Source: a virus
Strand: one strand, 5' to 3'
IMG/VR virus record: IMGVR_UViG_3300044501_000030
Length of the DNA stretch: 49,461 bases
Position numbers and translations under genes: made by a program. Each line of letters begins with the position of its first letter. Position 1 is the stretch's first letter. Under the pieces are notes generated by a model. That model did not search any database, was not told the origin of the DNA, and was given only the letters and a program-made list of their open reading frames with translations. Of the stretch, positions 9,027 to 49,461 are shown piece by piece.

Positions 9027-10326
9027 ACCGACCGACTGTCTTCCGCAGCGTCTCGTAGGTCTCGGCGGTGAGCGGCATGCCGTACAGACTCTCAGCGTCC
9101 GGCATGGGGCCAGGGCTGTTCATCATCTCCGCCAAGGCGAGATCGCGCCCATCCTCCGTGAACCGCAGTTCACCATTTTCGATCGCGAACGTGCGGAGAT
9201 CGCTTTCTTGAAAGTCCGTAAGATCAGGATTCGCGGCGGAGTTCATGTAGAGCAAGTTGAACAAAATCCCCATCTCTTTTCGGAGACGATCGATCGTGCC
9301 TCCATCGCCATTTGGATCGAAGTGCTCGGGCCAAATGATGTGGCCCTCCTCGATCACCGCGCGCGTCACGACGTGGACAGAGGGATCGTTTTCGATGATG
9401 TAGGCGTTGACGTCGTAGATTGTCCACCGCGTCGAGATGTTGAGTTCGATACATCCCGGCTTACCAATCAAGGCGCGGCTCGCGACGTGCCAGTCGAGTG
9501 CCGATTGCATGACGACGGGAGAGTTTGCAGCCTCCCATGTGGCGATGTCGTCCTTCGCGAGCGCACTTGGGTGTGTCCCGGTCGTGGCCCCACCAACGCC
9601 AGAGGCCCAGATGGTAGGGTCCGGCCACGGTCGAGGACCGTAGGGATAGGGGAATGTGAGCGCCTTCGCGTTCCAATCCCGCTTCGGCGGTGTGCGCCAG
9701 AAGCACTCCGGCCAGAGCGCACGAAGGAGTTGGTTTCCATCGGCGTGCGCCTGGATCACCGAGAGGTGAGACATCGCGCGCAGCTCCGTCTCCCCCGCAA
9801 GGAAGATCCGCTGATCCAATCCGCGTTCGTTCGGAAAGTAGATGTTGTGGTCCTTCGGCTGGATGACAACGTGGAGTGGCCAACTGCGCCCCACGATAGT
9901 TGATTTGCCTGATTCACGTGGTGCCAGGATGAGGACACGCCACGGCTCCGGTCGCGGGGTCTGCACTTCTTGGCACAGTTCTTTGTGGAAGGTCGTGAAG
10001 AACTCGTAGCCGAGGACGACTTTGGCGAACACGTAGAGATGGCGTTCCGCTTTCGTGCGAAACGACGTGACCCAACTATCCTCTGCGGTTGTGGCGCCTG
10101 CCTGACGGACTTGCTCGTTTGGTTGGACGACCAACTCCACGCGTGGGGGGACACCGTCTGGGAAGAGCGCCGCGTCCTCAGGGAGAAGATCGTATCGCGC
10201 TCTCGGCGCCTTCTTCCCAAACACCCGGTCGGTCGCCCAGCCACGGACAGCGGTGACTGCGGCGTCGCCCCGTGCAGTGGCGACTTCCGCAAGCACTTTA
10301 GCAAAGCGAGATTGCTGGCTCATCAA
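9001..10326 (-). CDS. terL: Terminase large subunit, N-terminal ATPase domain ORF (441 aa)
   Basis: Walker A LILAPRESGKST. It also has a TerL-type coupling motif ISTRWTIYD and a downstream ...NLLYMNSAANP... linker. It ends where the nuclease domain normally begins. Confidence 0.75.
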   Translation of the reverse strand: MMSQQSRFAKVLAEVATARGDAAVTAVRGWATDRVFGKKAPRARYDLLPEDAALFPDGVPPRVELVVQPNEQVRQAGATTAEDSWVTSFRTKAERHLYVFAKVVLGYEFFTTFHKELCQEVQTPRPEPWRVLILAPRESGKSTIVGRSWPLHVVIQPKDHNIYFPNERGLDQRIFLAGETELRAMSHLSVIQAHADGNQLLRALWPECFWRTPPKRDWNAKALTFPYPYGPRPWPDPTIWASGVGGATTGTHPSALAKDDIATWEAANSPVVMQSALDWHVASRALIGKPGCIELNISTRWTIYDVNAYIIENDPSVHVVTRAVIEEGHIIWPEHFDPNGDGGTIDRLRKEMGILFNLLYMNSAANPDLTDFQESDLRTFAIENGELRFTEDGRDLALAEMMNSPGPMPDAESLYGMPLTAETYETLRKTVGRYAALRLRA

Positions 10327-10907
10327 TCTCCCTCGCGCATCTCTTGCTGGCGCAGTTCGGCAACCACGTCGTCGAGCGCCCGCACCACGATGGGCTCAGG
10401 TGGCGGGGGACTCCATTGAAGTTGGTCGTCGACCACGACTTCACTGTCTTCCACGTGCGTTGATTCCACGTCGATCGGATCGCCGATCTCGTCGCACACC
10501 CGCTGCGCCAGTTGCTTCTGCGCATGCTCGACGGTGATGGTGAGGCTATTCTTCACTCCGTCTTCCGACTTGCGGGGAATCTGGCGATCGAAGAGCATGC
10601 CGGCGGCGGAGAGACGCACGCGGGCATCTTCGGGGTCCGCAAACTCCCCATCGCGCACGCTGCGGATGAAGTCGACGTTGTAGGGGGCATCGCCGAGCAA
10701 CTTGTCCATCGCGTTCTTGACCCCGTAGGTCGTCATCTCCCGCTGGTGCTGCGCGACGAGGGTCTTGAAGAGCGGAGAGGATTTGATGACCGAGATGCGC
10801 GCGGCGTTGCAGTGCAATTGCTTCGCGATCTCGCTGTTCTTCATGCCGGCCGCGACCATGAAGGCCATCAGCTTGTGGTTCTCCGAGAGTTTCGCGGGGA
10901 CGCTCAT
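10323..10907 (-). CDS. HTH protein, small-terminase candidate (194 aa from the internal ATG)
   Basis: Track ORF 10323..11216 trimmed to the ATG at 10907 (ATGA overlap with the upstream ORF). It has an HTH-like MKNSEIAKQLHCNAARISVIKS and a 4-nt overlap with the TerL ATPase ORF. Confidence 0.45.
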   Translation of the reverse strand: MSVPAKLSENHKLMAFMVAAGMKNSEIAKQLHCNAARISVIKSSPLFKTLVAQHQREMTTYGVKNAMDKLLGDAPYNVDFIRSVRDGEFADPEDARVRLSAAGMLFDRQIPRKSEDGVKNSLTITVEHAQKQLAQRVCDEIGDPIDVESTHVEDSEVVVDDQLQWSPPPPEPIVVRALDDVVAELRQQEMREGD

Positions 10908-20010: not shown

Positions 20011-20089
20011 GTGGGTGGATGGTGAAGGACTCAGCTACTTCATGCATTGCTGAGTGCGCATGTTCCTCCGCCCAATCTTGGAGGCTGAG

Positions 20090-21424
20090 ATGAAAACGAA
20101 CCAAAAGACCGTGTCGACAGCGCGCACCCATGAGGGGGGTCGTGCAGCGCGCCAGTCTGCGCAGACAGAATTGGAGCGCACGGTCGCAACCTGCCTCTTG
20201 TGGGAGCCGACGTTCTACGAGAGTGGCAGCCAGATTGCGGATCGCATTGTGTCGCTCTGCCAAGACGTTGGTATAGCCAACGCTGAGATTGCGGACTTGG
20301 CCGTGAAAGCACGCACCGACTGGAAGCTCCGGCACGTACCGCTGTTCCTTGCCCTCCAGCTCACACATAGAGCGCGAAACACCGGCGATGCACACCTGAT
20401 TCGTGAGACGTTGGCAGCCGTGATCCAACGTCCCGATGAGATGACAGAGTTCCTGTCGCTCTATTGGAAGAACGGTCGCATACCACTCGCGGCACAAGTC
20501 AAACGCGGTCTCGCAATGGCGTTCACGAAGTTCTCAGCGTACCAGCTCGCGAAGTGGAATCGCGACAAGGACGTGAAACTGCGTGACGTCTTGTTCCTCA
20601 CACACGCGAAACCCAAAGATATGAAGCAGGCTTCGCTGTGGAAGAAGCTCGTCGACAAGACGCTAGAGGCCGCTGACACGTGGGAGGTCGCGCTGTCAGC
20701 AGGGAAGGACAAGAAAGCGACCTTCGAGCGCCTCCTGAAAAAGGGTCAACTAGGCTACATGGCCCTGTTGCAGAATCTTCGGAACATGGAGCAAGCAAAC
20801 GTCAACCGCAAGCTGGTAAGAGAGGCATTGCAGGCTGGGGCCGAAGGCTCACGAGCGCTGCCATTTCGGTTCATCGCAGCGGCCAAAGCCGCGCCGAGCT
20901 ACGCCGCAGATCTCTCAGACGCAATGGTGGCAGCTATTCCTGCTGGCCTGAAGCTGGACGGAGGAACCACCGTGGTGGTCGACGTCAGCGGTTCGATGGA
21001 CGACCTGTTATCGACGAAGTCAACGCTTTCAAGGTTGGAAGCGGCGTCCGCGCTGGCCATCCTCATCAGTACGGTGAGTCAGGTGCGCGTGTTCACGTTC
21101 TCGAATGCAGTCATGGAGGTCCCGAATCATCGTGGGTTGCCACTTGCCGACGTGATTACGCGGAGTCAACCGCACGGTGGGACCTACCTCGCGGCTGCGT
21201 TGCGCGCAATTCAAGGACTTGGAATCGACGCCACGCGCCTCGTAGTCATCACCGATGAACAATCACACGACGGGACGATCCACCCGTGGGCCAAGCACAG
21301 CTACATCATCAACGTCGCACCATACCAACCGGGATTGGTGACACATGGAGGGTGGCACAGGATCAACGGCTGGAGCGAGCGCATCGTCGACTGGATGATT
21401 GCGCAGGAAGGAGATGTCCGATGA
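20090..21424 (+). CDS. rsr: Ro60/Rsr-like protein (TROVE domain + vWA domain), 444 aa
   Basis: GGAGG followed by ATG at 20090. TROVE-like N-terminal two-thirds (…CLLWEPTFYESG…, LALQLTHRARN…, GYMALLQNLRNM…, LPFRFIAAAKA). The C-terminal vWA has MIDAS VVDVSGSM…T…ITDEQSHDG. Confidence 0.7.
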   Translation: MKTNQKTVSTARTHEGGRAARQSAQTELERTVATCLLWEPTFYESGSQIADRIVSLCQDVGIANAEIADLAVKARTDWKLRHVPLFLALQLTHRARNTGDAHLIRETLAAVIQRPDEMTEFLSLYWKNGRIPLAAQVKRGLAMAFTKFSAYQLAKWNRDKDVKLRDVLFLTHAKPKDMKQASLWKKLVDKTLEAADTWEVALSAGKDKKATFERLLKKGQLGYMALLQNLRNMEQANVNRKLVREALQAGAEGSRALPFRFIAAAKAAPSYAADLSDAMVAAIPAGLKLDGGTTVVVDVSGSMDDLLSTKSTLSRLEAASALAILISTVSQVRVFTFSNAVMEVPNHRGLPLADVITRSQPHGGTYLAAALRAIQGLGIDATRLVVITDEQSHDGTIHPWAKHSYIINVAPYQPGLVTHGGWHRINGWSERIVDWMIAQEGDVR

Positions 21425-22055: not shown

Positions 22056-23837
22056 ATGACACCCACCCTGGTCAGCAACAACTCGCTCAACTGCGTCGCA
22101 ACGTGCTCGACGAAGACGATCCTCCGGTACAACTTCTTCTACACCAGCCCAGAAGAGTCGGCGAACCTCAAAGCGGGAAGCGCCGCGCACGAAGCACTCG
22201 CCATCTACTTTCGGGGTGGCACCACCAAGGAAAGCCTTCGTGCGTTCCGCAAAGCCTACAAAGCATGGGCGCTGGAGAACATCGATCCCGCGGACAAGTA
22301 CCTCGCACGACTTTCGTATCAGAATGTGCGCCTGATCCTGAAATACTGGATGGAGCGCACCCCGCTCGACGCCTTCCCGTTCACCGTTGAGCCTGAGCAT
22401 GTCGAGGTGAAGTTCTTGTACCCCCTCACGAAGTCGGGTGATCTCGTGATGCAGGGCATCCTCGACGCGGGTCCCGTCCGCGCGCGTCAAGGCGGCGCCG
22501 TTGGCGTGCTCGACCACAAAGCCCAGCCCGTGTGGTCAAAAGTACTAACCCCGCATGGCTGGCGCGCGTTTGGGTCGTTGAGCGTCGGCGATGAAGTGGT
22601 TGGTGTTAACGGTGCGCCAACCAAGGTCGTCGGCGTGTTCCCGCAGGGTGAGCTGCCAACCTATCGTGTCTCGTTCTCTGATGGGGCAGTAACACACTGT
22701 GCAGCGGACCACCTCTGGACGGTGTATTCGTCTTCGGAGAAGTCACGGGGATGGCGCACCTTGCGGCTAGACCAGATCATGAAGCGCCCAACTGACTTTG
22801 CTATTCCAGTGTCAGGACCGATTCAGTTCGAAGCAGACGACGAACTGCCTGTTGAGCCCTACGTACTCGGAGAGGTGACGAAGGCCGGTAAGCAGGCTGT
22901 TAGCCTTATGTGTCCCCACCATAGGTGCTTTATCCCACCACTGTATCTTCGTGCCTCGGTGGAAGCTCGAACCGCTATTCTTCAGGGATTGCTTGACACC
23001 GATGGCAACGTCTACAACGGCCACGTTAGCTTCACGACAGTAAGTAGAAGGATGGCAAAGGACGTCGTCTATTTGGTGAGGTCCTTAGGAGGACTTGCAC
23101 GCTACCGCTTGTCACAAGGGACGAAACAACAAGCCTACAAGGTTTCCATTCGCCTTCCAGCGGCGACGTTGCCATTCCGCTTACCACGGAAACGTGGTGC
23201 GATCGTCGTCAAAGGTCGACGCGCAATCCTACGATTCTTCGAGAAGATCGAAGCCGTCGAGCCTGCCGAGATGCGTTGCATCCAAGTGGAATCACCTGAT
23301 GGGCTCTACGTAACAGACGATTTCATTGTGACGCATAACACAACCTACCAGATCAACGCAGCATGGATCGAAGCGTTCCGGCTTGACAGCCAGATCACCG
23401 GCTACATCTGGGGCCTCGGCCAGCACATCACCGAATCGGTAGAGAGCGGGTACATCAACGCGCTGGAGTTCTCGAAGCTCCCTGGTTTGGAAGACCCAGG
23501 GAGGAAGTGCCGCGATCCACAGCACGGCGGCGTGACCTACGAGGAGTGCCAGCCTCTCCATGTCAAAGCCATGGTGGTAGGGCCGATCGGTCGCACACGC
23601 CACGCTGTGGCGCAGTGGAAGCGCGACGCCATCCGTTTGGGTCGAAGGCTGGAGGCGTTGAAACAAGACTACGCAGACCTGGACGCGCTGCCGAAGGCAC
23701 CGATGGAAGGGACGTTTACAGGCAGTTGTCGGTTCTGCGAATTTCGCCAGTTCTGCCAGACCGGGCGACAACTGGAAAACCTTGACCGCATGCTCGCGAT
23801 AGATGAAGAGCGCAAAGGAAAGGCGGGTGCAGCGTGA
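22056..23837 (+). CDS. Cas4/RecB-like PD-(D/E)XK exonuclease (Fe-S type) interrupted by an intein; the mature extein would be about 320 aa
   Basis: Extein motifs are GILDAG, VLDHK|T (D-x-K-T) and a C-terminal CRFCEFRQFC plus N-terminal Cys (Cas4-type 4Fe-4S ligands). A 273-aa insert lies between K155 and T429. Confidence 0.75.
   Translation: MTPTLVSNNSLNCVATCSTKTILRYNFFYTSPEESANLKAGSAAHEALAIYFRGGTTKESLRAFRKAYKAWALENIDPADKYLARLSYQNVRLILKYWMERTPLDAFPFTVEPEHVEVKFLYPLTKSGDLVMQGILDAGPVRARQGGAVGVLDHKAQPVWSKVLTPHGWRAFGSLSVGDEVVGVNGAPTKVVGVFPQGELPTYRVSFSDGAVTHCAADHLWTVYSSSEKSRGWRTLRLDQIMKRPTDFAIPVSGPIQFEADDELPVEPYVLGEVTKAGKQAVSLMCPHHRCFIPPLYLRASVEARTAILQGLLDTDGNVYNGHVSFTTVSRRMAKDVVYLVRSLGGLARYRLSQGTKQQAYKVSIRLPAATLPFRLPRKRGAIVVKGRRAILRFFEKIEAVEPAEMRCIQVESPDGLYVTDDFIVTHNTTYQINAAWIEAFRLDSQITGYIWGLGQHITESVESGYINALEFSKLPGLEDPGRKCRDPQHGGVTYEECQPLHVKAMVVGPIGRTRHAVAQWKRDAIRLGRRLEALKQDYADLDALPKAPMEGTFTGSCRFCEFRQFCQTGRQLENLDRMLAIDEERKGKAGAA
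22521..23339 (+). mobile_element. Intein (273 aa), apparent class 3 (Ala1, Trp/Cys/Thr signature) with a LAGLIDADG-type remnant
   Basis: Block A is AQPVWSKVLTPHGW and block B is AADHLW. DOD motif ILQGLLDTDGNVY is present. Block F is EMRCIQVE and block G is FIVTHN, followed by Thr+1. GC is lower than in the flanks. Confidence 0.7.
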
Positions 23838-26276: not shown

Positions 26277-28745
26277 GTGCCGAAGCTCGTTAAGGATGAC
26301 GGTCCACGTAGCGCACGGGTTGTCGTTTGTGGGGAGGCACCGGGGCGCACGGAAGAGGCATACCGTCGCCCATTCGTAGGCGCTGCGGGAGCGATGCTAA
26401 CACGCTGGTTGAAGCGCGTCGGCCTCACACGCAAAGAGATTTACATCACGAATGTCTATCCCTATCGTCCGCCAGGAAACGACCTGAGGCGCATCCCATA
26501 TGCGGAGCTGCAACAGTGGACTGAGCAATTGCACCTCAGACTTGCAGCGCTTGACGGTCCTATCGTGATCGTCCCGATGGGCAATTTCGCGTTGCAGGCC
26601 ATCATCGGCAAGAGTGGGATCACGAAGCATCGGGGCTCCATCTATCAGTACACCGACCGGCGGGGCCGTGAGATCAAGGTCATCCCGACGCTGCACCCTG
26701 CCGCGATCTTTCGGCAGCAGAAGTGGGAGCGTCGCTGCATCCGTGATTGGCAGCGCATCGCCAGTGACAGCCAGTTTGCCGACCTTCGGTTGCCGCAGCG
26801 CACGCACGAGATCATGCCCACCATCCATGACGTGGAGCTGTTCTTGGTAGCTGCCAAAGCGGCTGGCACCGCGCTAGCGGTCGACATCGAGACCCCAATC
26901 AAATGGAAACGGAAGGTGATCGGCCACACCAAGAAGGGGACGCCAAAGATCAAGAAGGAGAAGGGCGCGCGGTTCATCGCCTGCGTGGGATTCGCCAACA
27001 GTGCTGAGCACTCGCTGACGATCCCCACCACACGCGCCTACTGGGGCGACAAGGATGAGCTAGCGCGAGCGTGGGAGTTGATTCGTGCACTGCTAGCGTT
27101 GCCCAACGAGAAGATTTTTCAGAACGGGTGGTTCGACACGTTCCACTTCAATCGGCTGGGGATGCCAGTGCGCAACTGGCGCTGGGACACGATGGCGCTC
27201 CATCACGTCCTGATCCCGAACGAGGATCACTCACTCGCGTTCATGGGCAGCGTCGACACACGCCAGCCGTACTGGAAGGATGACAGCAAGAGCCAAGACA
27301 AAGGCATCCCGGTCGATTTGGAAACCTACTGGCGATACAACGGCATCGATTGCTGTGTGACGTGGGAGCTGCACGCGAAGTACATCAAGGATCTCGAAGC
27401 GTGCGGCCGGCTGGACCTCTACTTGAAGCACCATCGTCGCCTCTTCAAGCCGCTCCTTCAGATGTCCGTCGAAGGCATCCGTTCCGACGAGCACCGGCGC
27501 AAGCAACGCTTCGCTCAGCTCACCGCCGACCTGATTCGCCTGCGCACCACGCTGACGGCCCTTGCGGGTGAGGAACTGTACGGCAAGAAGGGTAGCCTGT
27601 CGACGAAGAAGCTCCGCGCCTTCCTGTATGACAAGCTGGGCTTGCCGCCGATGACCAAGGGTGTGAAGGGCGAGCAGAAGATCACGACGGACGAGATCGC
27701 CGTTCGCAAATACCAACTGAAGTTTGGCCGGAAGCGTCCTGAGGTGAATGAGGCGTGTCAGTTGATCTTGGACCATCGACGGTCAGACAAGCTGCGTTCA
27801 TTCTATGCAGCGAAGACGTGCGATGAGGACAGTCGCATCCGGTGCTCCTATTCCATTGCGCCCGAGAGTGGCCGGCTGTCGTCCAGCAAGAATCCGATGG
27901 GCTCTGGCATGAATCTCCAGAATGTCGACCGCGAAGCGAGAGACCACTTCATCCCCGACGAGGGCCACATCTTGCTCCGCATCGACATGGCCCAGGTAGA
28001 GAGTCGCTACGTCTATATGTTCACGGGTGACGAAGAGCTGATCGAGAAAGCACGGTCCAAACCGTGGGAGTATGATGACCACCGAACTACCGCTGCAATC
28101 ATCTTTGGTGTGCAAGAATGCATGGTCAACAAAGACCAACGGTACTTCGGGAAGCGGGTCAATCACGCCTCGAACTACGACATGCAAGGCAAACGGATGT
28201 CTGACGAGATGCTGAAGGATGGCGTCGTGGAAACACCCGAACGCGGCCAGGCGATGATCGAGGCCCGCATGGATGCGGCCCCCGCGATTCGCTCCGTGTT
28301 CCACCGCGAGACGCGCCGCATGATCATGACGGAGCGCTGCCTCGTCAACAGTTGGGGCCATCGATTGGACCTCACCGACATCCGACTCGGCCCCGACGTC
28401 TTTCGTGAGGGCTACGCTTTCCGTGCATCGAGCGAAGCGTCGTTTACGATCAATCGCTGGGGCTTGATCCCTGCCTTCAAGTACTGCAAGGGTCGCGACG
28501 CCAAGCTCCGCAACCAGGTCCACGATGAGCTAGTCTTCAGCGTCGCGCCGGCTGAGGCGTGGGATCTCTACCAGTTCGTGAAGCAGTCGATGGAGCGTCC
28601 CCGTCCCACCCCCTACGGAGAACTGATGGTCCCGGTGACGTTGAAGATTGGGGTGAACTGGGGCAGCGGTCACGAGTGGCAGAAGCCACCCCAGAGAAAA
28701 GAATTTGAGGAGGTCATACGTGACACGCGAGCCAAAGCGAAATAA
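26277..28745 (+). CDS. polA: Family-A DNA polymerase with 3'-5' exonuclease domain, fused to an N-terminal family-4-like uracil-DNA-glycosylase domain (822 aa)
   Basis: UDG motifs are VVCGEAPG…PFVGAAG and IPTLHPAAIFR. Exo motifs are AVDIETP, QNGWFDTFHF and YNGIDCCVTWEL. Pol motif A is LLRIDMAQVESRY, motif B is RYFGKRVNHASNYDMQG and motif C is QVHDELVF. The start codon is GTG. Confidence 0.85.
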   Translation: MPKLVKDDGPRSARVVVCGEAPGRTEEAYRRPFVGAAGAMLTRWLKRVGLTRKEIYITNVYPYRPPGNDLRRIPYAELQQWTEQLHLRLAALDGPIVIVPMGNFALQAIIGKSGITKHRGSIYQYTDRRGREIKVIPTLHPAAIFRQQKWERRCIRDWQRIASDSQFADLRLPQRTHEIMPTIHDVELFLVAAKAAGTALAVDIETPIKWKRKVIGHTKKGTPKIKKEKGARFIACVGFANSAEHSLTIPTTRAYWGDKDELARAWELIRALLALPNEKIFQNGWFDTFHFNRLGMPVRNWRWDTMALHHVLIPNEDHSLAFMGSVDTRQPYWKDDSKSQDKGIPVDLETYWRYNGIDCCVTWELHAKYIKDLEACGRLDLYLKHHRRLFKPLLQMSVEGIRSDEHRRKQRFAQLTADLIRLRTTLTALAGEELYGKKGSLSTKKLRAFLYDKLGLPPMTKGVKGEQKITTDEIAVRKYQLKFGRKRPEVNEACQLILDHRRSDKLRSFYAAKTCDEDSRIRCSYSIAPESGRLSSSKNPMGSGMNLQNVDREARDHFIPDEGHILLRIDMAQVESRYVYMFTGDEELIEKARSKPWEYDDHRTTAAIIFGVQECMVNKDQRYFGKRVNHASNYDMQGKRMSDEMLKDGVVETPERGQAMIEARMDAAPAIRSVFHRETRRMIMTERCLVNSWGHRLDLTDIRLGPDVFREGYAFRASSEASFTINRWGLIPAFKYCKGRDAKLRNQVHDELVFSVAPAEAWDLYQFVKQSMERPRPTPYGELMVPVTLKIGVNWGSGHEWQKPPQRKEFEEVIRDTRAKAK

Positions 28746-48886: not shown

Positions 48887-49461
48887 TCACTGTTGCTGAG
48901 CACTGGGAAGGCCCAATCCGTTGTCGGCGCCCCGCTGAGCAAGGCCCCCCACGAGGGCAGCAAGGCCCTGCAACCCACTCGCGTCCAAGTTCTTGACGTT
49001 GTCCAGTTCATCGCTGACCTCGACGATGAACGTGTGCGGATCACGGATCTGATCGAACGTCCGGACGGTCCGTTCAATGATGTTCGACCAGGCTTCGGCG
49101 ATCTTCTTCGCCACGTCGGCGATCGGCGGTGGAATGTTCGGCTGCGACGCGAGGGTGATGAGTTCCATGATCCGCTGGTAGTAGGTCCCAAGGATGTTCA
49201 CGAGGAGCATCGCGTTCTGGCGTTCCGCGTCGCGGTTGATCGTCGCGGAGGAGGCCGTCAGTTCGACGGAGACGTTCTGTTCGAAGTCGTCCGTCTTGAG
49301 GAGCGCGATCACCAAGGCGCCCTTCTGGTCGCCCAGCACCTTCCGGATGTTGCTCGCCGCAAGACCGTTCTCATCCTCCCGCAAGAGCTGCTCATGATAC
49401 CGCCAGAGACACTGTCGCACGGCCGCTGCCGCACATTCCTTCATGTTGTCGTAGGCCGGTG
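48887..49461 (-). CDS. Portal protein, C-terminal part (continues from 1..1376 across the circular junction)
   Basis: Track ORF 48887..49444 is in frame with the open frame of 1..1376 through the 127-nt overlap. The 'M' at 49444 is an internal Met. Confidence 0.75.
   Translation of the reverse strand, partial: PAYDNMKECAAAAVRQCLWRYHEQLLREDENGLAASNIRKVLGDQKGALVIALLKTDDFEQNVSVELTASSATINRDAERQNAMLLVNILGTYYQRIMELITLASQPNIPPPIADVAKKIAEAWSNIIERTVRTFDQIRDPHTFIVEVSDELDNVKNLDASGLQGLAALVGGLAQRGADNGLGLPSAQQQ
49335..49461. repeat. Terminal direct repeat, copy B
   Basis: Identical to 1-127. Confidence 0.95.

Follow-up and report, generated by a model that had tools for sequence, protein, structure and literature searches.

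This locus raises the question of what a block of 273 residues, set within the catalytic motif of a phage nuclease, does there, i.e., whether it splices and whether it still moves. The gene is an ORF of 593 aa with an uninterrupted reading frame (22056..23837, + strand) in the window, meaning the whole 49,461-nt stretch of DNA analyzed here, which comes from an uncultured phage of ~49 kb with 60% GC. We consider it very likely, with a probability of about 0.88, that the insert is a class 3 intein with a broken homing endonuclease in a phage recombination nuclease; the class 3 assignment derives from the sequence signature of the insert together with its predicted fold. A first-pass annotation had proposed an intein at 22521-23339, and all motif strings that it quoted are located as described there; each element of its reading was borne out computationally, with the corrections given below.

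The intein (22521..23339, + strand; 819 nt, 273 aa, 30.2 kDa) extends from Ala1 to Asn273, corresponding to residues 156-428 of the precursor, and separates an N-extein of 155 aa (22056..22520, +) from a C-extein of 165 aa plus the stop codon (23340..23837, +). Lys155 is encoded by nt 22518-22520, the codon for Ala156 starts at 22521, that for Asn428 ends at 23339, and Thr429 is encoded by 23340-23342. These boundaries are exact because P0121, a 320-aa allele that has no counterpart of the insert, aligns to the N-extein plus C-extein with no gap through GAVGVLDHK↓T (the arrow marks the junction). P0121 has exactly the predicted spliced length and is 79% identical to the joined exteins. It lies on a phage contig that is syntenic with the window, with 68-83% nucleotide identity in shared blocks, and so provides the intein-less allele that had been suggested as a check; at the nucleotide level, the alignment of the two contigs stops at window position 22519 and restarts at 23376. 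In the precursor, the match to Pfam PDDEXK_1 is broken into two stretches by the insert, while the in silico-spliced extein gives a single match (3-247 of 247, E 1e-15; 58.7 bits vs a cut-off of 22). As computed from sequence, a precursor of 66.1 kDa would give rise to ligated exteins of 35.9 kDa and an intein of 30.2 kDa.

The insert directly follows the invariant motif III Lys155 and precedes Thr429 in a PD-(D/E)XK nuclease with four Cys residues, in agreement with the original proposal that a D-x-K-T catalytic motif is split, the site being the Lys of the motif III (D/E)xK. The whole ORF has 1093 database relatives. Across 143 members of the extein family, no variation is seen at C17, D137, or K155, and position 153 conserves D/E; in spliced numbering, Q173 is near-invariant (137/143) and, with Y177 (141/143), forms the motif Q173-ITG-Y177. 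The four putative cluster ligands recur in 139-141 of the 143 proteins; they are C17 and, in 141 proteins each, C285, C288, and C294. In the window, the N-extein, which contains a PDDEXK_1 match, carries Cys17 (22104), the motif II Asp137 (22464), and the motif III Asp153-His-Lys155 (22512-22520), while the C-extein carries the candidate nucleophile Thr+1 (23340-23342), QITGY (23391-23405), and CxxCx5C in the form CRFCEFRQFC (23727-23756). Thus, every family-invariant catalytic and Fe-S residue is kept. The exteins are under purifying selection, with a dN/dS of 0.14 relative to the intein-less allele.

Among PDB sequences, the extein profile found nothing beyond weak MGME1 matches (E 0.005), and the nuclease could be placed only by its fold. 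A structural model of the intein-less allele (pLDDT 96.2) finds a match in chain A of the AdnAB complex (9np6 and 7sjr; E 1e-6, TM 0.50), with further matches to the Cas4-family ACE1, RecE, Dna2, the Cas4 protein SSO0001 (E 4e-4), and MGME1. Based on these motifs and the modeled fold, the extein is predicted to be a RecB/AddB/Cas4-type PD-(D/E)XK nuclease with a putative Fe-S cluster. The earlier label Cas4-like, therefore, holds in the broad sense of a RecB/AddB/Cas4 fold and motifs but not at the level of Pfam, since Cas_Cas4 (PF01930) does not match the spliced extein of the window and scores 13.7 bits against P0121, below its cut-off of 22.7. Also, no cas genes are present among the neighbors, which comprise a Sak4-like annealing protein/AAA_24, a UDG-PolA fusion, DUF3987, a TROVE protein, and a DEAD helicase. 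On these two grounds, we rejected Cas4 proper.

To classify the insert, we compared it with an intein family of 122 members (the window intein and 121 relatives) of the pattern K/R↓AQPL...LTPxGW ... DDFIVTHN↓T/S. The N-terminal part of the Hint domain (intein aa 1-112; 22521..22856, +) comprises blocks A and B and aligns to residues 4-72 of MchDnaB-1 (6rix); the C-terminal part (intein aa 236-273; 23226..23339, +) comprises blocks F and G. Block A (AQPVWSKVLTPHGW; 22521-22562, +) starts with Ala at residue 1, and block B (22683-22724, +), which contains AADHLW, has His64 at B10 (22710-22712) and Trp66 at B12 (22716-22718). In block F (MRCIQVE, +), Cys253 occupies the invariant F4 column (23277-23279), and block G (DDFIVTHN, +) ends in Thr271-His272-Asn273 (23331-23339), with IVTHN↓T spanning 23331-23342. 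The columns of His64, Trp66, Cys253, Thr271, His272, and Asn273 (B10, B12, F4, and G5-G7) are invariant in 122/122 inteins. Residue 1 is Ala in 108 and Ser in eight family members and is non-nucleophilic in 114; the +1 residue is Thr (109, including the window) or Ser (13), and the −1 residue is mostly Lys (62) or Arg (58).

A non-nucleophilic residue 1 and the WCT triplet (Trp at B12, Cys at F4, and Thr at G5) define class 3 inteins; both this definition and the mechanism derive from PMC2807308. The window sequence has Ala at residue 1, the WCT triplet, and Thr at +1. Moreover, the PDB sequences closest to the insert are the class 3 inteins MchDnaB-1 (6rix, E 9e-12) and Msm DnaBi1 (6bs8, E 8e-10). 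His64 and Trp66 lie opposite the block B H-x-W of MchDnaB-1 and Cys253 opposite its block F Cys, where the window sequence mRCIQVEsPdgLY lines up with vRCVEVDNPAHLY; the MchDnaB-1 residues in question are His65, Trp67, and Cys124, and its active site is a Cys-His-Thr triad (PMC7664689). The alignment to the 121 relatives and to MchDnaB-1 thus yields B12, F4, and G5 as initially assigned, along with Ala1 and Thr+1. NCBIfam models gave just local matches of the endonuclease region to intein-containing proteins, all far under cut-off. The triplet alone does not guarantee activity, since a class 1 intein into which WCT had been grafted failed to splice efficiently (PMC7664689).

With the steps borrowed from characterized class 3 inteins, we suggest the following model. 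The insert would be translated in frame within the RecB/Cas4-type recombination exonuclease, immediately following the catalytic Lys of motif III (D-H-K↓T). Ala at residue 1 would be unable to start splicing; rather, Cys253, activated by His64 and Thr271 with Trp66 packing against the His, would attack the Lys155-Ala156 peptide bond so that the 17-kDa N-extein is held as a thioester branch. Cyclization of Asn273 would then release the 30-kDa intein, and an O-to-N shift would generate the backbone ...VLDHK-TTYQ... of an active 36-kDa nuclease. We speculate that, in recombination and replication of the phage, the mature nuclease partners the Sak4-like annealing protein encoded next to it. We infer by analogy not only this chemistry but also that the window intein splices efficiently. 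The insert would formerly have been a mobile homing element; now that its endonuclease lacks one half-domain and two catalytic residues, it would represent a late stage of the homing cycle. It may persist because an imprecise deletion of it would abolish the active site of the nuclease.

An alternative to this model is that the intein is a decayed, non-splicing remnant, with the 593-aa product a dead nuclease and the gene being lost, as for Arth_1007 of Arthrobacter sp. FB24. The endonuclease part is plainly decaying, and two further features are unusual. First, block B position 7 is Ala61, the sole Ala among the 122 inteins (C in 79, S in 24, T in eight, D in six, and G in four), and this residue could weaken activation of the N-terminal junction; MchDnaB-1 and Msm DnaBi1 have Asp at this position, and the S62A substitution at the same position of the MP-Be DnaB intein caused no appreciable loss of splicing (PMC2807308). 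Second, the residues following +1 are atypical in that the +3 residue is Tyr, compared with Gly in 113/143 extein relatives. We considered co-conversion of this diverged C-extein stretch together with the intein but found no support for it because other intein-bearing alleles have ordinary T-G-R/Q-type sequence there. [quoted passage not shown] However, Arth_1007 has an extein of 66 aa, and Asp replaces its block F Cys (WDT; PMC2807308), whereas the window retains WCT, unlike this inactive intein, together with complete, conserved nuclease exteins. In the window, all six invariant splicing residues are intact and none of the 28 conserved Hint columns is altered, the frame remains open for 593 codons, and the exteins combine a dN/dS of 0.14 with a full set of invariant catalytic and Fe-S residues. 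Finally, the identical 593-aa protein is present on seven contigs, and the two loci compared, which come from different samples (L002 and L003), are 100% identical to the window at the DNA level. Altogether, we consider a non-splicing remnant distinctly unlikely and favor a splicing-competent class 3 intein.

The endonuclease differs from the splicing domain. The degenerate LAGLIDADG motif 1 (block C; PYVLGEVTKAGK, YVLGEVTKAG; 22857..22892, +) deviates from the family consensus PYaLGlLLGDGc by replacement of the catalytic Asp with Ala122 and of Gly with Lys121; the window is the sole Ala in a column with Asp in 114/122 inteins and the sole Lys in a column with Gly in 118/122. It is followed by a deletion scar with a remnant of block D (intein aa 124-142; 22890..22946, +), in which the block D Lys (116/122) is replaced by Cys136, again the sole Cys. 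The deletion removed about 58-64 consensus residues from the first half-domain, based on 58 majority-occupied columns that are gapped between residues 124 and 134 and on positions 131-194 of the family HMM, which are unmatched in the window intein. In the AlphaFold model, pLDDT drops to 54-79 across the scar, and no strands are present between helices H113-122 and H140-143. By contrast, LAGLIDADG motif 2 (block E; ILQGLLDTDGNV; 22977..23012, +) is intact. G156, L157, D159, D161, and G162 of its GLLDTDG core agree with invariant or near-invariant columns, and a complete second alpha-beta half-domain follows to about nt 23225 (H147-161, E162-173, H176-188, and E192-211 in the model); Pfam LAGLIDADG_3 matches insert residues 150-243 with E 1.7e-8.

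With 273 aa vs a median of 352, the window intein is the shortest of the 122, and 5 of 28 conserved endonuclease columns are altered, including D122A and K136C; by itself, the contrast to the 0/28 in the Hint domain is marginal (Fisher p = 0.051). The insert has neither two acidic motifs nor two complete half-domains nor the block D Lys of a double-motif endonuclease. Pfam gave no significant match to the four ORFs that overlap the intein in other frames, inside or opposite it. The suspicion that the endonuclease is decaying is thus borne out by the length of the insert, the missing positions, and the two unique replacements of motif 1 Asp and block D Lys. Class 3 mini-inteins have no endonuclease and still splice (PMC5222942). 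The endonuclease of the window intein is degenerate, and most likely the intein can no longer move.

Single-motif LAGLIDADG enzymes are homodimers, and the remaining half-domain could in principle act in this way, or with a DNA-recognition region of the Hint domain, so that the intein still homes. Motif 2 and the full alpha-beta-beta-alpha-beta-beta unit that would allow this are intact and confidently modeled. Nevertheless, the motif 1 helix remains and would take up the dimer interface, the deletion has removed the first DNA-binding sheet, Ala122 and Cys136 are each unique in their columns, and no endonuclease is encoded in an alternative frame inside or beside the intein; we regard ongoing homing as highly improbable and retain the immobile intein.

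The predicted structure is in line with this arrangement. The intein model (pLDDT 93.5, pTM 0.91) matches PI-SceI, MchDnaB-1, Msm DnaBi1, gp41-1, and the Hedgehog autoprocessing domain with a Foldseek probability of 1.00; TM values are 0.74-0.78 on the query for PI-SceI (E about 1e-13) and, on the target, 0.77-0.85 for MchDnaB-1 and 0.74-0.78 for Msm DnaBi1. As modeled, the insert has a Hint plus LAGLIDADG fold, and the proposed structural check rules against a non-Hint domain. That the blocks are mis-assigned, i.e., that W-C-T is coincidental and the insert belongs to class 1 or class 2 or to the non-intein Hint/BIL domains, has next to no probability, even though Pfam Hint models scarcely score (Hom_end_hint, E 0.26) and Ser comes first in eight relatives, because the triplet is invariant in a family with a non-nucleophilic residue 1 in 114/122 members, His64, Trp66, and Cys253 align directly to their counterparts in MchDnaB-1, the leading small-intein matches in sequence as well as fold are both solved class 3 inteins, Ala1 is incapable of an N-S acyl shift, and class 2 (KlbA) inteins do not have the triplet (PMC2807308).

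Because splicing would hang on the single reactive Cys253 and the insert adjoins the catalytic Lys, the intein might be kept as a conditional switch that renders the exonuclease active only under reducing, low-zinc conditions; the M. smegmatis class 3 intein DnaBi1 is redox- and zinc-sensitive. Such a switch, which would time or gate recombination-dependent replication, is an unlikely proposition drawn from this analogy. The retention of a perfect splicing core after the death of the endonuclease is compatible with it, but the lethality of imprecise deletion is a sufficient explanation as well.

Class 3 inteins had been called rare in the first-pass annotation; in phage and metagenome data they are not, and this exact site is already published. 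A class 3 intein in motif III of RecB/Cas4-like phage exonucleases has been reported (Kelley et al. 2016, PMC5050341; bioRxiv 10.1101/2025.01.02.630785), and the 2025 actinophage survey lists 138 cases (bioRxiv 10.1101/2025.01.02.630785). Class 3 inteins at this site are thus known, and the window intein adds one more. As in the window, the actinobacteriophage inteins are inserted directly after the motif III Lys and before Thr (published site E-F-K↓T; D-Y-K↓...THN↓T in Zeeculate gp67 and E-L-K↓...THN↓T in Shaqnato gp205), have the WCT signature and a LAGLIDADG endonuclease, and belong to a family also found in P-loop K↓T sites of terminases and helicases. The window intein differs from them in its uncultured host and its deleted endonuclease half-domain, is 29-33% identical to the mycobacteriophage copies over an aligned stretch that includes some extein flank, and resides in a separate 320-aa nuclease sub-family.

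The comparison made earlier with a mycobacteriophage helicase prototype holds for the signature but not for Ala1. Similarly to the window intein, the DnaB intein of Mycobacteriophage Bethlehem (MP-Be) has a non-nucleophilic residue 1, a phage origin, and a LAGLIDADG endonuclease inside the Hint fold; however, it begins with Pro, resides in a DnaB helicase, and follows a pathway shown by mutagenesis (Tori et al. 2010, PMC2807308), while that of the window intein is derived by analogy. It has 341 aa, and both LAGLIDADG motifs are present in a published alignment. MchDnaB-1 (6rix, 6riy) and Msm DnaBi1 (6bs8), the best PDB sequence matches, share the Cys-His-Thr triad and the fold (TM 0.74-0.85 on target) but are natural mini-inteins of ~139-146 aa in bacterial DnaB proteins and have no endonuclease, whereas the window intein keeps half of one. 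PI-SceI (VMA1 intein; 1vde, 1lws) is the best whole-model fold match, with an LAGLIDADG endonuclease inserted in a Hint domain, but belongs to class 1 (Cys1), is 454 aa long, has an active endonuclease with both half-domains complete, and is 12-14% identical to the window intein.

The distribution of the insert, like its base composition (below), bears the mark of a mobile element. Among the best 150 representative clusters of the nuclease family, the insertion is present in 5 and lacking in 145, and the same (D/E)xK↓T/S site is occupied by a member of the intein family in 19 other, metagenomic nucleases. A six-frame hmmsearch revealed no second intein of this family in the window. The differently called neighbors of the gene in L003 suggested mosaic transfer of the intein-bearing gene; we discarded this idea because the DNA of L002 and L003 is 100% identical to that of the window. 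A megablast search with the gene against 50,697 phage records gave no match, the phage has no close cultured relative, its PolA reaches no more than 28% identity with any of the phage records, and Rfam and tRNA scans of the window returned nothing. The (D/E)xK↓T site known in actinobacteriophages is here found in an unrelated, uncultured phage lineage; taken with the 19 metagenomic nucleases, this lends support to the published view that the targets of the family are K/R↓T/S motifs, nucleotide-binding or catalytic, in many different genes.

Overall, these findings leave the current understanding unchanged. In practical terms, the annotation of the gene should read intein-containing RecB/Cas4-like exonuclease, with 320 aa in the mature product, instead of hypothetical protein of 593 aa or LAGLIDADG endonuclease. 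The intein-bearing allele, whose endonuclease is dead, and the 79%-identical intein-less allele of a syntenic phage would together represent a natural snapshot of the late homing cycle, and the natural 273-aa variant could seed a compact class 3 splicing tool. Base composition sets the insert apart from its surroundings. The reported dip in GC below the flanks is real but mild, falling to 0.527-0.553 in 300-nt windows vs 0.58-0.63 in the flanks; over the whole intein, GC is 0.554 compared with a window mean of 0.598, within the lowest 7% of 819-nt windows. The signal is clearer at third codon positions, where GC3 is 0.59 in the intein and 0.79 and 0.73 in the two exteins.

The nuclease gene (22056..23837, + strand) is one uninterrupted frame of 593 codons, in which a 273-residue insert runs from Ala156 (from nt 22521) to Asn428 (last nt 23339), between Lys155 (nt 22518-22520) and Thr429 (from nt 23340); translation recovered every peptide string quoted in the first-pass annotation at its given position. 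Pfam finds PDDEXK_1 in two separate stretches on the precursor and LAGLIDADG_3 within the insert (E 1.7e-8), and in silico removal of the insert yields a single full-length PDDEXK_1 match (profile 3-247 of 247, E 1e-15). Using the in silico spliced protein of 320 aa as a query, we found the intein-less allele in a related phage that had been called for: P0121 (320 aa, 79% identity, 100% query coverage) aligns without gaps and has an unbroken junction (GAVGVLDHK-TS...). P0121 is encoded on L001, a 23-kb contig syntenic with the window (DEAD helicase, small ORFs, PD-(D/E)XK nuclease, AAA_24, DUF669, UDG-PolA, DUF3987; 68-83% DNA identity in shared blocks), and the alignment of the two DNAs ends at window position 22519 and restarts at 23376. 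The boundaries of the insert are exact. Two more contigs encode an identical 593-aa protein; because their DNA is 100% identical to the window, they represent the same phage.

A protein-database search with the whole ORF gave 1093 relatives, most of which share the insert alone. From 120 listed proteins among these relatives, we assembled 122 inteins, including the window's own, and classed the host proteins by Pfam domains and junction context. Among the matches listed, the hosts include PhoH proteins (intein after MRGR), P-loop proteins (after GK; among others RecA, DnaB-type and Snf2-type helicases, CpaF-type ATPases, and terminases), and PD-(D/E)XK nucleases (after (D/E)xK). Some metagenomic PhoH-like/P-loop proteins (P0006, P0008, P0009) hold two inteins of this family in one polypeptide, one located at the P-loop GK|T and the other at MRGR|T/S. 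In the 122 inteins from the matches listed, residue 1 is Ala in 108, Ser in 8, Gly in 3, and another residue in 3; residue +1 is Thr (109) or Ser (13); and residue -1 is Lys (62), Arg (58), or another residue (2). In the MAFFT alignment, His64 (B10), Trp66 (B12), Cys253 (F4), Thr271 (G5), His272, and Asn273 are present in 122/122, all of them in the window's intein. The top PDB sequence matches of the insert are the class 3 inteins MchDnaB-1 (6rix, 6riy) and Mycobacterium smegmatis DnaBi1 (6bs8), with H-L-W opposite their block B H-x-W and R-C-I-Q-V opposite their block F Cys. The Hint fold, for which AlphaFold modelling had been suggested, was likewise recovered: the model (73 aligned sequences as input; pLDDT 93.5, pTM 0.91) is confident except at residues 121-140 (pLDDT 54-79), and Foldseek matched it with probability 1.00 to PI-SceI (TM 0.74-0.78 on query, E about 1e-13), MchDnaB-1 (TM 0.77-0.85 on target), and Msm DnaBi1 (TM 0.74-0.78 on target). 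Class 3 inteins are defined by a non-nucleophilic residue 1 that co-varies with the WCT triplet (Trp, Cys, and Thr of blocks B, F, and G), together with Ser/Thr at +1 (PMC2807308). Because the family signature, the PDB sequence matches, and the fold matches agree, the insert has every sequence and fold feature of this class, as the first-pass annotation had proposed. From the signature residues and the homology to characterised inteins, we infer class 3 chemistry; transplanting WCT alone into a class 1 intein did not make it splice efficiently (PMC7664689).

The suggestion of a decaying endonuclease also held. At 273 aa, the intein is the smallest of the 122 (next 304, median 352). Opposite the family consensus ...PYaLGlLLGDGc...[about 60 aa]...tKFiP..YL..., the window has PYVLGEVTKAGK-QAVSLMCPH-HRCFIPPLYL; 58 majority-occupied alignment columns are absent between residues 124 and 134, and family HMM positions 131-194 have no match, a half-domain deletion in the endonuclease. 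Moreover, motif 1 has Lys-Ala for Gly-Asp and block D has Cys for Lys, each of these residues being unique in its column (n=122). The second LAGLIDADG motif (GLLDTDG) is preserved, as is its half-domain. Taking alignment columns with at least 90% conservation across the other 121 inteins, we counted departures in the window's intein at 0/28 Hint columns versus 5/28 endonuclease columns (Fisher p = 0.051). These comparisons indicate a broken endonuclease alongside an undamaged splicing core. The sole oddity of that core is at block B position 7: Ala here, not seen in other family members (n=122), and Asp in MchDnaB-1 and DnaBi1 (PDB sequence alignment); the S62A substitution at this position in the prototype class 3 intein still permits splicing (PMC2807308). 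Because class 3 mini-inteins without an endonuclease splice (PMC5222942), the deletion should leave splicing possible. At block B positions 6-7 (intein residues 60-61; 22698-22703), the window has Cys-Ala where Cys-Cys prevails in the family (84 and 79 of 122); this conserved pair near the catalytic His and Cys could be relevant to redox or metal sensitivity of the family.

When the spliced extein is aligned to 142 relatives lacking the intein (n=143; spliced numbering), Asp137, Asp/Glu153, and Lys155 are conserved in 143/143, Tyr177 and each of Cys285, Cys288, and Cys294 in 141/143, Cys17 and His45 in 139/143, and Gln173 in 137/143. This pattern of motif II/III/QxxxY with 1 + 3 Cys points to a RecB/AddB/Cas4-type nuclease, in which the intein lies directly after the invariant Lys155. 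When the intein-less allele was modelled (pLDDT 96.2), its fold matched the AdnAB complex (9np6 and 7sjr, chain A), Cas4-family ACE1, RecE, Dna2, Cas4 SSO0001, and MGME1. PHROGs labels the nuclease an exonuclease, and the next gene encodes a Sak4-like annealing protein. Because the nuclease scores below the Pfam threshold for Cas_Cas4 and its neighbours are replication and recombination genes, the earlier term "Cas4-like" is right only in a broad structural sense. The nuclease is under purifying selection (extein dN/dS 0.14 versus the intein-less allele), which argues that the precursor splices. The nuclease stretch most diverged from the intein-less allele is TYQINAAWIEA (23343-23375, C-extein +2 to +12; SGRLDSSWADS in P0121), with Tyr at +3 where 113/143 relatives have Gly; in other alleles that carry an intein, the residues after +1 are of the usual kind. 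This divergence could reflect adaptation to the intein, homing-site loss, or drift.

The lower GC noted by the first-pass annotation is real and modest (300-nt windows down to 0.527-0.553 at the insert versus 0.58-0.63 in the flanks); GC3 gives a clearer signal (0.59, against flank values of 0.79 and 0.73). The intein-less allele, searched exhaustively against 1.84 billion representatives, has 657 relatives, and among the best 150 the split architecture of roughly 600-700 aa occurs in just 5 (P0001, P0002, P0003, P0005, P0252). Because +1 is Thr/Ser in 108/143 intein-less relatives, most of them are potential homing sites. Among the matches listed, 19 other nucleases carry a family intein at the same (D/E)xK|T/S site, all <=48% identical to the window's intein; the closest relative of any host type in that list, at 48.5%, belongs to a PhoH. 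Under the homing-cycle model, an old and stranded intein is expected to be sporadically distributed, with foreign codon composition and a dead endonuclease, as seen here.

In cluster C1 mycobacteriophages, Kelley et al. (2016, PMC5050341) described "Cas4 RecB-like exonucleases" whose PD-(D/E)XK motif contains a class 3 intein (40 inteins). A 2025 actinophage survey (bioRxiv 10.1101/2025.01.02.630785) reported 138 class 3 Cas4-exonuclease inteins at E-F-K|T (RecB motif III), traced their origin to terminase P-loop inteins through "extein switching", and noted that some endonuclease domains are degraded and that class 3 inteins range down to 225 aa. Because site and class agree with these reports, the window adds another member to a type already known in phages. 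By alignment, Zeeculate gp67 (D-Y-K|...THN|T) and Shaqnato gp205 (E-L-K|...THN|T) have the same insertion site. What sets the window's intein apart is its uncultured phage without a close cultured relative and the distinctive half-endonuclease deletion.

The last 127 nt (49335-49461) are an exact copy of the first (1-127), the overlap of a circular assembly; therefore, the window probably represents an entire phage genome of about 49.3 kb (49,334 bp). Upstream of the nuclease, a 456-aa protein with TROVE and Ro60-type vWA domains (20054-21424, +) looks like a phage-encoded Ro60/Rsr-like protein. At gathering thresholds, the window has no Y-RNA, other Rfam family, or tRNA, and any RNA partner would be of an unrecognised kind. 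In a single 822-aa ORF (26277-28745, +), a uracil-DNA glycosylase (UDG) superfamily domain is fused to a 3'-5' exonuclease and a DNA polymerase of family A, an arrangement also present on L001. L001 additionally has a small gene (10217-10441) whose product contains an Acb2_Tad1_hairpin domain and is similar to an anti-CBASS/anti-Thoeris sponge.
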